Positions 165 through 24,979 of a stretch of DNA of 33,675 nucleotides are shown piece by piece. Each line of letters opens with the position of its first letter. Positions within the stretch are counted from its first letter, which is position 1. The stretch covers positions 1 through 33,675 of IMG/VR virus record IMGVR_UViG_3300017911_000597; one strand, given 5' to 3'. The DNA is from a virus (Duplodnaviria; Caudoviricetes). Made by a program: the position numbers and the translations under genes. A model generated the notes under the pieces. That model did no database searches and was not told the origin of the DNA. It saw only the letters and a program-made list of their open reading frames with translations.

Positions 165-1019
165 ATGAGCATTACATCCGAAGTCAAACGCGCAAAGCGC
201 TCAAAAGAAATCGAACAAAAAGTATTCAAGATCACGCCGGCGCACGCCGAAAAGTGGCTGGAAATGAACACTGGAAATCGCCGTATTCGTCCATCACATG
301 TGCGCCACCTCGCAAAACAGATGGAACAGGGTCGCTGGATGCTTAGCCCAGAGCCAATCGTGTTCAGCCCGCAACGCTTGCTCGATGGTCAGCACCGACT
401 ATCCGCCGTTCTCATGAGCGGGTGCACAATCGAGGCATCTGTCGCGCTCGTGCAGAACGAGGACGTGTTCCGCGTACTCGACCAAGGCGTAAATCGCAAC
501 AACAGCGACCTAACAGGTATCCCGTCACCCGTATTGCAGCCACTGCAATGGCTACTAAAGCATAGCGTCAACGCATTGCGTAAAGGGAAAATCGTCATTG
601 ATGATATCGAACGCATCAGAAACGAAAACATTTTCACGCTTTCGTACCGCGTCAACGAAGTCATCAAGCCAAAGGATCGCCGCTTCAAGTCCGCGCCGTT
701 CCGCGCGGCATACATCATGGCGGTTGATATGAAATTGTGCGACCTCGAAACCGCGGACCGCATCTACACCGACCTATCGCACATGAACATGACAGAGTGG
801 TCACGCATGATGCAAAATATCTTTCATCGCTTTGAGACGACTAAAGTGCACGGCGCAAGCAATAGCTTGAAAAACGAATTCTTTATGGCTGGCTTGTACC
901 TGTTCTCGGAGGCACACAGTAAGAAAACAAAAATCATTCTTACTGAGAAATTCACAGACGAAATGGAAAAGCGGGTTCGCAATCGCATCAACCTGCTTTA
1001 CCGTAAATCTGAATACTAA
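165..1019 (+). CDS. ParB/Srx-like N-terminal domain protein (DGQHR motif)
   Basis: ITP..A..WL..N..NR, W....EPI.F....LLDGQHRL.A motifs. AGGAG RBS at 150-154 supports ATG 165 rather than 84. Confidence 0.75.
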   Translation: MSITSEVKRAKRSKEIEQKVFKITPAHAEKWLEMNTGNRRIRPSHVRHLAKQMEQGRWMLSPEPIVFSPQRLLDGQHRLSAVLMSGCTIEASVALVQNEDVFRVLDQGVNRNNSDLTGIPSPVLQPLQWLLKHSVNALRKGKIVIDDIERIRNENIFTLSYRVNEVIKPKDRRFKSAPFRAAYIMAVDMKLCDLETADRIYTDLSHMNMTEWSRMMQNIFHRFETTKVHGASNSLKNEFFMAGLYLFSEAHSKKTKIILTEKFTDEMEKRVRNRINLLYRKSEY

Positions 1020-1024
1020 CAAAT

Positions 1025-1180
1025 TGGGCGCCTCACAAGCGCCCACCGTAAGCCATGAGTGCGGTGACGGGTTTAGGGTTATCTGCATTTCCCCCGTCAA
1101 CCATGGCAGCGTGAGCCGGTGGCAATCTCCGCTGGTGATCACGCACCGAGAGGGCGGGTTTACTCCTTTTCCGTCCTCTC
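1025..1180 (+). other. four consecutive stem-loops between convergent genes (terminators and/or structured RNA)
   Basis: Stems 1025-1031/1039-1045; 1052-1057/1102-1107 with inner 1065-1071/1093-1099; 1109-1114/1139-1144 with inner 1115-1122/1129-1136; 1148-1157/1171-1180. Confidence 0.55.
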
Positions 1181-2603
1181 ACACTACCCCACGAATTCCA
1201 CGCTTCAGCGGCTTACTCCAAGCCCCAGACGACGATCGCCCATAAGCCATCGTCGTGTGCTCGTTTGCAAGCGCCAAGCAAACAGCGTCCGCGCGGTCGG
1301 GCGAATTAACGCCGCGCTTCTTCATCGCCTCCTTGCTCTCAACTTGCATCTTGCCAGAGCTGGTAAAGTGATAACGCGGAGCCGCTAAATCCGCATATAA
1401 CGCGTCGTCACGCGGCAATTTGACGTCCATGCCCTCTAACCAGCCCTTCGCCTTAAACCACAGCTCAGCGCGCAGGTTGATGTACGTCTCCTTTTGCGAA
1501 GACCGCTCCGACACGTTCAGACCACGCGCCGGCAAATCCAACTCCCGCAAGCGATCCAGAACGCCCGCGCCAAAGCCGTTACTGTCAACAATGATCTCCA
1601 CTGGCCGCTTTGACGGCGGCAACACGTCATATTCCGCCTTCACGGCGCCAGTAAGCTGCATCAGGTCGAGGTTTCGCCAAACCGTGAGCGGATGGATCAA
1701 CGGGCCCTGACGCTTACACAACACGCTGCTATCGCCGCCCTGACGTGCAACGTCCAATCCCCATATGGCGGGCGTATCCTCGTGAACCTTAATATCGTTA
1801 TTCATCGCGTGCTCGATCAACGAAACCGGTATAACCGTGTCCTCTTCGGACGGCGGGAAATTTCCCAAAACGCGCACATGGTACGCCGGACTGTCCTCGC
1901 CATAACGCTTCTTCATGTCCTCGACAAAATCGTCGCTGACGCGCGGGCTACTAACGCAGGAAACATGCATCGTGCGCCAGTCTTCACGCAGGCGATTGTG
2001 CGTGTCATAAAAAAACCCAGTATTCCGCGTCGGGTTACCCGTCAAAACAGTCGTCGCATTGTGGCCAGACATCGAACCAGACGCGGCCTCAAAAACGGCG
2101 TTCGGGACACCGCTGGCCTCGTCGGCAATCAGCAACACGTTCTCGCTGTGAACACCAGCGAGCGCCTCGGGCTGCTCAGCCCGCGACGTCCTACACGAAA
2201 TAAACGTGCTCTCAGGCTGGCTCTTCAGCTCAATACGATCAGACTTCAACTCCAGCAAATCGTTGAACGGCGGGCGCAGCCGCTTGGCGACGTTTTTCAT
2301 CTCAGCGAAACAGGCGTCGAACAACTGCGACGACGTGGGCGCCGTGACAACCGTCTTGGATGGGATACGCATCAGAACGTGCCAAATTGCAGCCATCGCA
2401 ACGGCGGTCGACTTGCCGACACCGTGGCCAGAGCGAACGCTGATGCGTCGGGCGTCAGGATCGGCGATCGACTGCAAAAGCTCACACTGCCATTCGTCGG
2501 GCTCGATGCCGATGACCTCACGCGCAAACGAGACGGGGTCGTTGCGGTAACGACGCATCAACGCGACGAACGGGTTATCTTGTAATTTTTTTTGAGGGGT
2601 CAT
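1179..2603 (-). CDS. terL: terminase large subunit
   Basis: Walker A VRSGHGVGKS, Walker B LLIADEASG, TGNP coupling motif, RNase H-like nuclease motifs GLDVAR.G.D and SPDRADA. Confidence 0.95.
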   Translation of the reverse strand: MTPQKKLQDNPFVALMRRYRNDPVSFAREVIGIEPDEWQCELLQSIADPDARRISVRSGHGVGKSTAVAMAAIWHVLMRIPSKTVVTAPTSSQLFDACFAEMKNVAKRLRPPFNDLLELKSDRIELKSQPESTFISCRTSRAEQPEALAGVHSENVLLIADEASGVPNAVFEAASGSMSGHNATTVLTGNPTRNTGFFYDTHNRLREDWRTMHVSCVSSPRVSDDFVEDMKKRYGEDSPAYHVRVLGNFPPSEEDTVIPVSLIEHAMNNDIKVHEDTPAIWGLDVARQGGDSSVLCKRQGPLIHPLTVWRNLDLMQLTGAVKAEYDVLPPSKRPVEIIVDSNGFGAGVLDRLRELDLPARGLNVSERSSQKETYINLRAELWFKAKGWLEGMDVKLPRDDALYADLAAPRYHFTSSGKMQVESKEAMKKRGVNSPDRADAVCLALANEHTTMAYGRSSSGAWSKPLKRGIRGVV

Positions 2604-2712
2604 GTTAACACCTGTTTACGAAGAGGGGGTGGGGGTGCGTGGAGGGGTCATTTGCATTTGTGCCCGCCCGCCGAATCAAAAGGGGGGGGTGTTTTGCGTT
2701 TTCTGCATAGGT

Positions 2713-2740
2713 CACTCTGATAATGTCGATTATGTTAAAT
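2713..2740 (+). other. dif-like XerC/XerD recombination site
   Basis: CACTCTGATAA-TGTCGA-TTATGTTAAAT has 11-6-11 geometry. The right arm is identical to the E. coli dif XerD arm and the left arm ends in the conserved ATAA. Confidence 0.75.
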
Positions 2741-2818
2741 TCTAATTCCTGCATACGACATATAAATAAGGCGTTTGCGCGTCGCAACGCTGCAACGAGC
2801 CATGCAAAAAACGCAATG

Positions 2819-2834
2819 GCACAAGATGTAGTGT
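2819..2834. promoter_or_regulatory. NrdR-box-like pseudo-palindrome
   Basis: GCACAAGATGTAGTGT resembles the NrdR consensus acaCwAtATaTwGtgt, single copy in the terS-terL gap. Confidence 0.35.
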
Positions 2835-2914
2835 CAACAGATTGTAATTGAACACTCGTTCTGTTATTCGCGCGCGCCCGCGCACAAGTGTTCGCCACTG
2901 TGTGATTCCGACGC

Positions 2915-3361
2915 TCACACGTCATCATCGTCCACCTCGACCGCTTCACCATCGATCACGTCACCAAGCAACTGCGCAGCCTGCGCGTGCAAGTCGTTGA
3001 CGCTGATGTTGATTGCCACGTCACGTTGTCTTGTGTCGTATTGCGCGTTCAGCTTCGACGCCATCCACTTGTCAGTGTCCACTTGCAAGCGTGCGACGTT
3101 GACCATCGATGGATCGGTATTTTGAGCTGTGTCAACCGCACGCTCTGCGTAATAGTGTCCAGCCTCTAGCTGTGCAGCCGCGTACCTGTCACGCCTGCCA
3201 GCTTTTGCATCTAACCAACGCGACCACAGCTTATAGCCGATGTCGCGTTCTTTCATCAGGCTTCGCACGCTCTTACCGCTTGCGATTTGCTCGAACAGCT
3301 CATCCTCTCCGATCTCTTCGAGCGCCGCTAACTTTGCCTTCGCGATGTTACTTCTTCCCAT
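2915..3361 (-). CDS. terS: terminase small subunit (Sf6-like)
   Basis: N-terminal HTH-like segment (EQIASGKSVRSL), Y..A....A..YAE and ARLQVDTDKWMASKL motifs, located upstream of terL. Confidence 0.75.
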   Translation of the reverse strand: MGRSNIAKAKLAALEEIGEDELFEQIASGKSVRSLMKERDIGYKLWSRWLDAKAGRRDRYAAAQLEAGHYYAERAVDTAQNTDPSMVNVARLQVDTDKWMASKLNAQYDTRQRDVAINISVNDLHAQAAQLLGDVIDGEAVEVDDDDV

Positions 3362-8118: not shown

Positions 8119-8913
8119 TTAGTTTGCCTCTGTGAATTTGAACGAGAATGGCGGGATACGGATCGTCATCAACTCCCCGTAATCGTAAGTCCACTCGTTG
8201 TTCGCTTGCGCTATTGCATACTGCTCCAGCGCGTATTGTACCGCCGCGTCCCCTTCGTTTAGGGATTCGGCGTCCAATTCGTAAATACCAACTTTGTATG
8301 GTGCATCCTTTCCGACAGCTATAAAGATAAACCGATCCACCTCGTGCCCGTCAAGCTCCATAACTCGACGATAAAAACTTTCTTGGATGTGATACCCAAG
8401 GTTTGCAGCCTGCCTTGCAAAGCCTTCTGGTGATGGGTCTATCGTTGTTTTCAAGTCTAGCAGGCACGCAATGTCTTTGCGCCAGCCGTCAGGCCGTGCG
8501 CGCATTTCAACGCCCGTGGGTGCATCTTTAGTTAGTACGCTTGCCTCACACACAAGGTCACCAGATAGCAACTCAGCGGCTGCGCCGTTGGCTCTGACGG
8601 CTTCTGCTAAGCGGTGCACCTTGTCATATTCTGCAGTGTTTAAGATGATCGCGCCCGCCTCGTCGGCGCTTTCTTTAAACTCGTTGTACTCTTTACCGGC
8701 GCGTCGGCCTCCCCACTCCCAAATTTCGTCTGCCTTGTGCGGCTCAAATGTAAGAGTATGCGCCGCAGAACCGATTAGCATCGCTGTCGTTTCTTTGCGC
8801 TCGCCATATTTAAAGTCGGCCAATGACTGCAGGGCAATCGTCTTTGCGCCTGATGACGATAAGTGTGGCAGCGAGTGATAATCGCTGTTGGACATGTCCA
8901 AGTGTACTGGCAT
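8119..8913 (-). CDS. RecE/exonuclease VIII-like PD-(D/E)XK nuclease (DUF3799-like)
   Basis: YH....LSSS, GSAAH...FEP, RARPD, LLDLKTT and GYHIQ..FY motifs. Confidence 0.88.
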   Translation of the reverse strand: MPVHLDMSNSDYHSLPHLSSSGAKTIALQSLADFKYGERKETTAMLIGSAAHTLTFEPHKADEIWEWGGRRAGKEYNEFKESADEAGAIILNTAEYDKVHRLAEAVRANGAAAELLSGDLVCEASVLTKDAPTGVEMRARPDGWRKDIACLLDLKTTIDPSPEGFARQAANLGYHIQESFYRRVMELDGHEVDRFIFIAVGKDAPYKVGIYELDAESLNEGDAAVQYALEQYAIAQANNEWTYDYGELMTIRIPPFSFKFTEAN

Positions 8914-9359
8914 TACAATTTCCCCCTTCCATAAAGCGCAATCAGCAATGCCTCTGCGCGGTGCTCATCCTTCTTGCGCTTTAGTTGTGACGCAAGGTCC
9001 GGAAACCATTGCTGCGCCAGCCGTCTCGCTGCGTCTTTGTCGCGTGGAAGATTGAGAGATCGTTTCCAAGTGTTGGGCGTGACCTGAGTATATGCAGTCC
9101 GCGACAACGCGCACGTCGTCAATATCTGCCCATAACCAAAGCCTAACTTAAAAGTAGAGCTGACGCCCTGCTTTGGCATAGCTTGCTGCTTCTCAATGAA
9201 TATGTGATCCACTCGATCGACCGAGGTCAATATATCCATAAGAGCCACAACATCGACACCGCCTTCGTCGTATGTTGGTAGGTCATGAACCTCTGCCCAG
9301 TCATCACCGACTAACGCAACGCCGCCTGTGCGGTAACCACAATCAATTCCGATGATCAT
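8913..9359 (-). CDS. RuvC-like Holliday junction resolvase
   Basis: MIIGIDCG..GG, FIEKQ.AMPKQG..STF.LG..YG, V.P..WK, D..AEALLIA. Start at 9359. Confidence 0.85.
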   Translation of the reverse strand: MIIGIDCGYRTGGVALVGDDWAEVHDLPTYDEGGVDVVALMDILTSVDRVDHIFIEKQQAMPKQGVSSTFKLGFGYGQILTTCALSRTAYTQVTPNTWKRSLNLPRDKDAARRLAQQWFPDLASQLKRKKDEHRAEALLIALYGRGKL

Positions 9360-9510
9360 CAGCCACCTCAAAGCCTTGTTTTTCGAGGTATTCTCTGACA
9401 GCGTCTTCAACTATCTTTGACATCGATAGCCTAGTCATGGCGCTGTAATTTTGCAGCGCATGATATACTTGCTCACGAATCCGTGGGCCAATTTGTTTAA
9501 GTTGATACAT
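9343..9510 (-). CDS. ribbon-helix-helix (Arc/CopG-like) transcriptional regulator
   Basis: 55 aa: KQIGPRI strand, helix, then SMSKIVEDAVREYL. GGAGGA RBS at 9515-9520. First gene of the replication operon. Confidence 0.7.
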   Translation of the reverse strand: MYQLKQIGPRIREQVYHALQNYSAMTRLSMSKIVEDAVREYLEKQGFEVADDHRN

Positions 9511-24346: not shown

Positions 24347-24979
24347 TCATAATGCCTTGATATGCAAAAAATTAGAGATGCAATATCTACCATATCCGTC
24401 CAATGCATCTTCGGACATCGACAGTTCAGTAACTTGATGCCAAGCTATTGATGGGAATACTACCACACGATTGCTCTTGCATTCAATCTTTGCGTCATGC
24501 TCTATAATAAGATCGCCGCCACTGAATGATTTTGGCTCGCGATACAGCCAACACAAAAAGGTTGCGACTGCCGCATCTTTGTGCGCGTCATACTTGTCAC
24601 TATTTTCATAATACAGCATTTGCAAACTATCGAATGCGCCTAATTCTGGGTCAATATACCTCAAGAACCAAGCCTGTTCTTTCATAGGGTCAAGTAATTC
24701 GCTTTCGAAATATTGTCGCGTGATACGATAAATTGGTGAAAGATTTGGGCTATGATAAAACTCATGGTGCATGATGCCCATGTTCTTCTTTATATACTCA
24801 CCGTCATTATCTTTTGCCCCATAAGTGTCATCTGGTGTGCGAAAGCTTTTTCTCATAAAGTCTAGTTCATCTAACATTTCATGAACTTCATTTTGGTTGA
24901 AAAAGTTGTCCATTACAAAGAATGGTAACCCATTTTTTGTGTGTTTTAACTTTATTTCGCGGAATCTATCATGCTTCAT
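24347..24979 (-). CDS. 2OG-Fe(II) oxygenase (prolyl-hydroxylase-like)
   Basis: HKD...FSGGDL...NRVVVFPS..WHQV...RY: HxD/H facial triad plus the 2OG-binding Arg. Confidence 0.88.
   Translation of the reverse strand: MKHDRFREIKLKHTKNGLPFFVMDNFFNQNEVHEMLDELDFMRKSFRTPDDTYGAKDNDGEYIKKNMGIMHHEFYHSPNLSPIYRITRQYFESELLDPMKEQAWFLRYIDPELGAFDSLQMLYYENSDKYDAHKDAAVATFLCWLYREPKSFSGGDLIIEHDAKIECKSNRVVVFPSIAWHQVTELSMSEDALDGYGRYCISNFLHIKAL

Follow-up and report, generated by a model that had tools for sequence, protein, structure and literature searches.

The 28 bp at positions 2713-2740 of the window (the whole stretch of DNA that was analysed, 33,675 nucleotides) are, as predicted from sequence, a real and conserved dif-type site for XerC/XerD. 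The site lies between the terminase genes of a tailed phage in which no recombinase gene was found, and three phage isolates have a dif-like site in both of their terminal repeats. We give an even chance to the reading that host XerC and XerD recombine two copies of the site at the genome ends, circularising or concatemerising the phage DNA.

A dif-type site in the largest gap of the genome

The record is a podovirus-type genome, rated 91% complete, that occurs in seawater and estuary metagenomes. Its closest cultured relative by the terminase large subunit (TerL) is the Sinorhizobium phage phiM5 (MF074189), at 50% identity in TerL and 45% in the capsid protein. The site and its neighbours are as follows.

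1179..2603, minus strand: terminase large subunit, terL (phrog_2, E 2e-40; 50% identical to phiM5 TerL)
2604..2914: terS-terL intergenic gap, 311 bp (from ORF positions; no Rfam match)
2713..2723, plus strand: XerC-type arm, CACTCTGATAA
2724..2729, plus strand: 6-bp central spacer, TGTCGA
2730..2740, plus strand: XerD-type arm, TTATGTTAAAT (identical arm in bacterial genome sites)
2915..3361, minus strand: terminase small subunit, terS, Sf6-like (phrog_1482; PF20901, E 5e-15)

The sequence CACTCTGATAA-TGTCGA-TTATGTTAAAT has the organization described for dif-type sites, two 11-bp arms around a 6-bp centre in the order ATAA-centre-TTAT (PMC2731167; 10.1101/2024.04.09.588662). It is also non-coding and low in G+C, as expected of such a site (8/28, vs 42-58% per kb across the window). 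A preliminary description of this DNA had noted the 11-6-11 layout in the largest gap, an XerD arm identical to that of E. coli, a conserved inner ATAA and a spacer agreeing at four of six positions, and our recount agrees throughout: relative to E. coli dif, the XerD arm matches at 11/11 positions, the spacer at 4/6 and the XerC arm at 5/11, namely the inner ATAA plus the C at position 5. The E. coli dif 28-mer itself is also present in viral loci such as L100. The match is unique, since ATAA-N6-TTATGTTAAAT with up to two mismatches is found once in the window, for a mean of 0.03 in shuffled sequences. A dif profile gives the site 28.2 bits, the sole score in the window above 14 bits; five shuffles peaked at 16.9.

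The gap is the largest among the 46 ORFs taken as genes. It is crossed by a 115-aa ORF (2605-2952) without a PHROG match, which we treat as spurious because only 3/5 complete relatives have a counterpart and its identity there (63-75%) is below that of TerL (87-94%). The Rfam search of the window gave no match, and the one sigma-70-like promoter match near the site is at chance level. As single-stranded DNA the gap folds better than shuffled sequences (z -3.07), and a 20-bp inverted repeat (2694-2713 and 2797-2816, 85% complementary) brackets the site. A hairpin attP of the CTX type was rejected for this fold, as there is only one dif-like core.

Conservation among relatives

We found 342 relatives by TerL and fetched the best 80 of the 342, at 81-96% identity. 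Twelve end too near terL to be assessed; the site is present in 65 of the other 68, a conservation within the terS-terL gap that the preliminary description had proposed to check. The site lies 92-204 bp before terL, except in L074, where the distance is 825 bp and the site is behind an insert (~50-800 bp upstream of terL) that by eye resembles an HNH endonuclease gene. Each of the five complete relatives has one proper site. The three relatives that lack it (L052, L070 and L071) are near-identical to each other in the gap, and their TerL is near-identical to that of the dif-bearing L050; judged from these sequences, the site is dispensable. No resolvase or integrase was found in these three incomplete records. 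Their gap contains several GGACCG or GGGACCG repeats, ~100-330 bp upstream of terL.

The inner arms hardly vary across the 29 distinct 28-mers, and 17 different spacers are present. Information content is 1.76 bits per base in the XerD arm, 1.65 in the inner and 0.78 in the outer XerC arm, and 0.83 in the spacer, with arm conservation partly fixed by the search pattern, which also set the spacer length at 6 bp; the flanks of these sites have 0.32 and 0.39. Positions 5 (C) and 17 (A, the last spacer base) lie outside the pattern and are invariant in 29/29 distinct sites. The XerD arm, the inner XerC arm and position 5 are thus kept and the outer XerC arm and the spacer vary, a pattern that matches the account of proteobacterial dif in Carnoy and Roten 2009 (PMC2731167). 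At the CTG of the window's XerC arm, most relatives have CCG, CGT or CGC. Dif-like sites of Paracoccaceae-family genomes include the CTGATAA form, and the relatives' arm variants are present in 113 of 201 such genomes, where a reversed control pattern matches rarely. The orientation of the site is inverted in L350, L411, L413 and L576.

At TerL identities of at least 80% the site is present in 9/9 viral loci, and at 50-80% in 6/49. Phage C72C1 (TerL 46%) has it in the equivalent gap. It never occurs within 2 kb downstream of terL in the 121 loci with at least 1 kb there. No site scores above shuffle level in eight capsid or terS relatives from culture or deposited records (Venkman, HTVC106P, DSL-LC05, phiGT1, MW202462, MW202711, MW202496 and phiM5).

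Absence of a phage recombinase

The preliminary description saw no recombinase gene, and profile searches of the 91% complete window agree, with no match to PF00589 or PF07508. It had proposed to check the missing genome part for a tyrosine recombinase; all five complete relatives lack PF00589, and they lack PF00239 too (positive controls matched). These searches, and the 65/68 conservation, uphold its view of an XerC/XerD site in a recombinase-less phage. PF00589 was matched by 0 of 42 further records, and the large serine recombinase profile PF07508, DUF3653 and FtsK-gamma by neither the window nor four complete relatives. Among 40 window ORFs there was no match to a partition protein and, beyond the primase-helicase, none to a DNA polymerase. 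The window has an exonuclease VIII-type gene and a gene for an enzyme acting on Holliday junctions:

8913..9410, minus strand: RuvC-like Holliday junction resolvase (phrog_1770, E 8e-27; homologue in 5/5 complete relatives)

A 284-aa gene at 165-1019 (plus strand; phrog_5931) is present in 2/5 complete relatives and carries what we take to be a DGQHR motif; the other complete relatives have an HNH-like gene downstream of terL. A 2OG-Fe(II) oxygenase gene (24347-24979; phrog_61) lies among the tail genes.

A probable terminal repeat around the site

In the window phage the site probably belongs to a short direct terminal repeat that would also take in the 3' end of terS.

2590..3010: putative direct terminal repeat, up to ~420 bp, limits approximate (contig depth in runs X1-X4; phiM5 layout)
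2682..2689, plus strand: G-run (C-run on the gene strand) with GC-rich flank, also in the dif-less phiM5 and L599

Contig depth is raised ~1.7-2x over ~2590-3010 in four runs (X1-X4) from two studies. In X1 the contig over 2591-3013 has a depth of 174.6, vs 112.6 and 95.9 on the flanks and 79-113 for the seven other long pieces listed; at 92% likeness X1 yields only five pieces, with no second strain on the flanks. Depths are 36-43.6 vs 20.2 and 22.6 in X2, 59.3-60.8 vs 35.6 and 32 in X3, and 113.2 and 98 vs 46.1 and 59.3 in X4, which comes from the other study and represents a related strain. In X2, X3 and X4, contigs break at 2588 and near 2990-3008. We call the repeat likely only, since each depth is one mean per contig (a measure that carries the tool's own warning against ranking parts by it), X1 and X2 are possibly the source of the window, and X1-X3 come from a single study; strains sharing the 2590-3010 stretch could also raise its depth. 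By eye, contig ends have no clear peak near the site, and no joints or molecule-end peaks are reported in these data, which are contigs only.

In phiM5, the annotated 357-bp direct terminal repeats begin inside the gene before terL, cover the end of this terS-position gene up to just before terL, and stop just past a C-run and a GC-rich stem. The assignment of that gene rests on position, because its match to TerS is weak (25%, E 0.002). The G-run at 2682-2689 is likely a terminus or terminase signal. The Sf6-like TerS family is a headful-packaging one, so the depth peak could instead mark a pac site or headful start. If the gap is a terminal repeat, virion DNA carries the site twice, as a direct repeat with one copy at each end. 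The preliminary description had missed the likely repeat, to which the depth step and the phiM5 layout point. The end repeats that IMG/VR gives for complete relatives (59-141 bp, elsewhere in the genome) were rejected because they look like assembly overlaps, as does a 127-bp end repeat of L110/L130, rejected likewise.

dif-like sites in other phages

Searches of phage records with short blastn queries revealed dif-like sites in T7-like Ralstonia phages and in many rV5-like phages, and three of these genomes were checked. In Hena1 both annotated terminal repeats (519 bp) contain one; so do the two copies of an exact 459-bp end repeat in EdH4 and those of a 142-bp repeat lying close to both ends in RpT1. 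All have canonical arms and spacers unlike that of E. coli. Not all phage dif sites are located at ends, because those of the Vibrio phages K303 and PhiPS02 and of the Burkholderia phage Maja are internal in their records, with no terminase gene within 3 kb. In K303 (36 kb; L345:2994-3021) and PhiPS02 (35 kb; L346:2994-3021) the site is ~1.7 kb from a ParA-like gene, and these two are possibly phage-plasmids using Xer resolution.

A scan of 6 of the 64 parts of IMG/VR by the motif only (~1300 stretches estimated) gave at least 120 loci, 80 of them with flanks. By their flanking genes, 18 of the 80 look like inoviruses and one like a microvirus. In 34 of the 80, terL lies within 2.5 kb (tblastn) and the site is upstream of it in all of these except one (33/34), with 20 sites in one orientation and 14 in the other; these loci form 9 TerL groups less than 30% identical to each other. 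Among distinct contigs of 20-40 kb, 11/16 are terL-linked, vs ~3 by a rough length estimate. The terL-linked counts are not independent, since IMG/VR is biased towards hallmark genes and the window's TerL family supplies 20 of the 34, and the bias for the position upstream of terL could partly reflect free non-coding space.

Several loci have other arrangements. L168 (minus strand, near 2430-2528, upstream of terL) has two tandem dif-like cores, the second with a 9-bp centre. Dif-like sites lie between terL and portal in L104 (2501-2528) and between integrase and terL in L157 (2497-2524). L362 (minus strand, near 2339-2366) and L435 have perfectly palindromic arms around 6 bp, and the L362 site immediately precedes a tyrosine recombinase gene, as in a Xer module with a single recombinase. 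In L106, L159, L145, L135, L093 and L114 (64-129 kb) the sites are not near terL, and two are beside chaperonin genes.

Accessory motifs beside the core

A 13-mer resembling the IHF consensus (WATCAANNNNTTR; consensus from PMC9452768) lies on the terS side of the core in 26/63 distinct flanks, vs 1/63 on the opposite side and a shuffle expectation of 4.3. It starts 13-14 bp from the core in 19/62 distinct family flanks, and stands at that distance in 10/31 terL-linked loci, 0/116 bacterial sites and 0/16 inovirus sites. C72C1 has it at 13 bp, and relatives with an inverted core still have it on the terS side, at 13 bp. The window site has no IHF consensus at up to one mismatch; in its subclade another motif replaces the IHF-like site.

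2759..2771, plus strand: conserved motif CATATAAATAAGG, XerD side (comparison of 63 distinct flanks)

By this comparison, CATATAAATAAGG occurs in 24 flanks and the IHF-like site in 25, both in 0 and neither in 14. IHF may serve the terminase as well, because phiM5 has an IHF-like site inside its repeat and no dif. There is no KOPS polarity towards the site (5 motifs toward and 6 away over 7 genomes, a small count made with the E. coli-type motif, from which that of the host may differ). An activator like XafT, which has been linked to the DUF3653 family (PMC6744903), was found in 0/5 records.

A serine resolvase in place of dif

We compared 42 hand-picked records, many of them incomplete, for dif and PF00239: 16 have only dif, 9 only the resolvase, 17 neither, and none has both. 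In L591-L610 (19 loci) and L082 a resolvase gene lies directly before terL and there is no dif, and in MW202879 the resolvase is at 966-1634, after terS, again with no dif. The gene encodes a small serine resolvase of ~226 aa (PF00239; L599:2328-3005, also L591-L595, L597-L610, L082 and L502). In a TerL tree (66 dereplicated rows, quick IQ-TREE, LG+G4; rows below 49% identity, or with less than 2 kb upstream and neither feature, were left out), the window's clade of 24 rows has the resolvase clade as its sister, and the resolvase state changes 2 times and dif 8 times. These sequence comparisons are suggestive of a resolvase replacing dif in related lineages, in few independent events.

Gene order around the site and host genomes

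terS lies beyond the site in 63/63 viral loci with enough flank; two more end within 50 bp. The metagenome scan used as pattern the terL side and the first five XerD-arm bases only, and covers 115 of ~140 loci. terL is beside the match in 84 of the 115; 56 of these extend for 450 bp or more past it, and terS lies beyond the site in 55 of the 56. The remaining locus, L370, has a TerL identity of 42% and a match that is not dif-like. Among 28 shorter metagenome loci, 16 have terS and the other 12 match phage gap DNA. No phage-host junction (attL/attR at host dif) was present in the 63 viral and 55 metagenome loci. In the genome collection, no family gene lies beside 30 matches of a G-run plus site pattern or beside 120 CCG-type sites, and the exact window-type site is absent from 185,579 genomes. 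The family TerL was not found in 401 Paracoccaceae-family genomes (E<=1e-60), a search that is uninformative because it lacked a positive control. TCAGTA is the commonest spacer in 201 Paracoccaceae-family genomes, and by eye TGTCGA is not among the 150 of 161 matches listed for them. L081, a phage-like contig in an Opitutae bin, has terS, site and terL in intact order.

A possible role in joining genome ends

We envisage that after injection XerC and XerD would bind both end copies of the site, whose identical spacers would permit crossover whatever their sequence. Xer sites are described as recombining when their central regions are identical or close (10.1101/2024.04.09.588662). Crossover between the end copies would turn the linear genome into a circle. 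Joining two genomes in this way would produce head-to-tail concatemers, and crossover within a circular dimer would return monomers. The difference between its spacer and that of the host would limit insertion into the chromosome. A free spacer and a free orientation fit a site that recombines with its own copy. Activation is the weak step of this mechanism, since there is no KOPS polarity and no known activator. We infer a route independent of FtsK, which a DNA-bending accessory site, IHF-like in many relatives, possibly sets; our guess is an XerC-first route aided by DNA bending, like that of cer and psi (PMC5357621). The junction made by XerC could then be finished by XerD, by replication or by the phage's RuvC-like enzyme.

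Several observations stand against end joining. The exonuclease VIII-type gene offers a homology-based route to circularisation, 17/42 records have neither dif nor resolvase, the resolvase state accounts for only 2 changes in the tree, there is no KOPS polarity over 7 genomes and no FtsK-gamma or DUF3653 match, and the window itself has no IHF consensus. We propose, as a tentative generalization, that unrelated tailed phages, lytic ones included, have convergently put a mimic of host dif in their terminal repeats, often with a phased IHF site, where XerCD would circularise or concatemerise the genome without FtsK, and that in sister lineages a serine resolvase encoded by the phage takes over this role.

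Alternative explanations

The preliminary description listed three functions for the site. Action on the phage's own DNA is the part that we favour; integration at host dif, which it thought could act as a switch by separating terS from terL, is not supported, and we find it improbable that the site is an attP and the phage an IMEX. Several features would suit an IMEX: the site is intergenic, no integrase was found in the window, relatives or further records, and the window spacer keeps TGT on the XerC side; in VGJphi, attP and dif1 differ on the XerD side alone (PMC5357621). Variable spacers are shared with integrating gokushoviruses (PMC7062461), and the relatives' spacers TCTGTA and TATATA equal spacers in bacterial genomes. 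The lack of junctions in assemblies does not amount to proof, as prophage junctions assemble poorly. However, the phage gene order is unbroken (63/63 viral and 55/56 metagenome loci, L370 being non-dif-like), all 12 short flanks without terS are phage gap DNA, family genes are absent beside the 30 and 120 genome-collection matches, and so is the exact site from that collection. The first three spacer bases take 12 forms, spacers drift and the orientation flips. The prophages flanked by two dif copies for which the preliminary description suggested looking are likewise missing from the viral, metagenome and genome-collection loci.

It is unlikely, though a serious alternative, that the site resolves multimers or unlinks a circular replicating or carrier form, with the terminase genes nearby only because there is free space. 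The sequence and conservation of the site fit such a role, the phased accessory-like motif resembles the cer/psi design, and replacement by a resolvase fits equally well, as do the lack of a DNA polymerase match beyond the primase-helicase and the ParA-like gene near the K303 and PhiPS02 sites. Multimer resolution should work anywhere, yet 33/34 terL-linked sites are upstream of terL and none is downstream in 121 loci; three isolates hold the site in a terminal repeat, and partition proteins have no match in the 40 ORFs. We regard as quite improbable a site that XerC/XerD only bind, without crossover, be it an end cap or roadblock against exonucleases or translocases or a landing site for host factors. 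Such a role would suit the terminal position, free spacer and free orientation, and XerD is described in Bacillus and Staphylococcus as having roles at dif-like sites that involve binding only (PMC9226527), but 29/29 distinct sites retain the two arms with exactly 6 bp between them (at a spacer length fixed by the search), and recombination is suggested by the exchange of the site for a catalytic resolvase gene in related lineages. That the motif is a terminase (pac) or promoter signal with a chance resemblance to dif is very hard to credit: such a signal would account for the vicinity of the terminase genes and the likely genome end, but the chance expectation is 0.03, identical arms occur beside 9 unrelated TerL groups and in bacterial genomes, the C at position 5 is invariant, the orientation of the site is free, phiM5 shares the terminus layout but not the site, and the sole sigma-70-like match nearby is at chance level.

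Relation to known systems and implications

The site shares with chromosomal dif, the substrate of XerC, XerD and FtsK as described in PMC2731167, the 11-6-11 layout, the XerD arm, the inner XerC arm, the C at position 5 and a non-coding, low-G+C setting. Unlike dif, it is phage-borne, lacks KOPS polarity, varies in spacer between close relatives and likely has two end copies. As for cer (ColE1), psi (pSC101) and the xrs/pdif sites of Acinetobacter (PMC5357621; 10.1101/2024.04.09.588662), host XerCD would act on the element's own DNA at a spacer differing from the host's, possibly with a one-sided accessory sequence. The phage site differs in belonging to a tailed phage without visible partition genes, in likely acting between genome ends, and in its accessory motif, IHF-like at 13-14 bp in relatives vs PepA/ArgR/ArcA in cer/psi. 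CTXphi, VGJphi, TLCphi, GGI and the enterogokushoviruses also combine a dif-like site with no integrase of their own (PMC5357621, PMC6744903, PMC7062461). In contrast to these IMEX, we have here a dsDNA tailed phage with free site orientation, no XafT/DUF3653 and no attL/attR found. phiM5 resembles the window phage in TerL (50%), capsid (45%) and a terminal repeat annotated at the terS/terL junction, but it has its own integrase and no dif-like site.

In phage P1, loxP lies in the terminal redundancy, and Cre cyclises and monomerises the genome. A tyrosine-recombinase site duplicated in terminal redundancy may be common to both phages (here judged from contig depth). The recombinase would in our case be host XerC/XerD, with a short repeat and no plasmid prophage machinery seen; a phage-encoded recombinase of the P1 type was not found in the window or the five complete relatives. 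The site would work like a plasmid Xer site or P1 loxP, and be assigned to either only by likeness. End joining in recombinase-less phages with short repeats is usually credited to homologous recombination or end annealing. The mostly open-access Xer/dif literature that we searched names inoviruses, microviruses, tailless prophages, satellites, islands and plasmids as Xer users; none of the papers found there describes a tailed phage with dif in its terminal repeats or terminase region. Our analysis adds contig depths that speak for a terminal repeat, a search for junctions, the exchange of dif for a resolvase and an IHF-like site at a fixed spacing.

A dif-like site alone is not grounds for calling a phage temperate. 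If end joining by host XerC/XerD is true, mobile elements would have a third way of exploiting Xer, alongside integration and plasmid resolution. XerC, XerD and possibly IHF would then be host factors for abundant marine podoviruses, and the same factors would serve the rV5-like coliphages used in biocontrol. The 28-bp sequence would also provide a marker for genome termini in metagenomic contigs.
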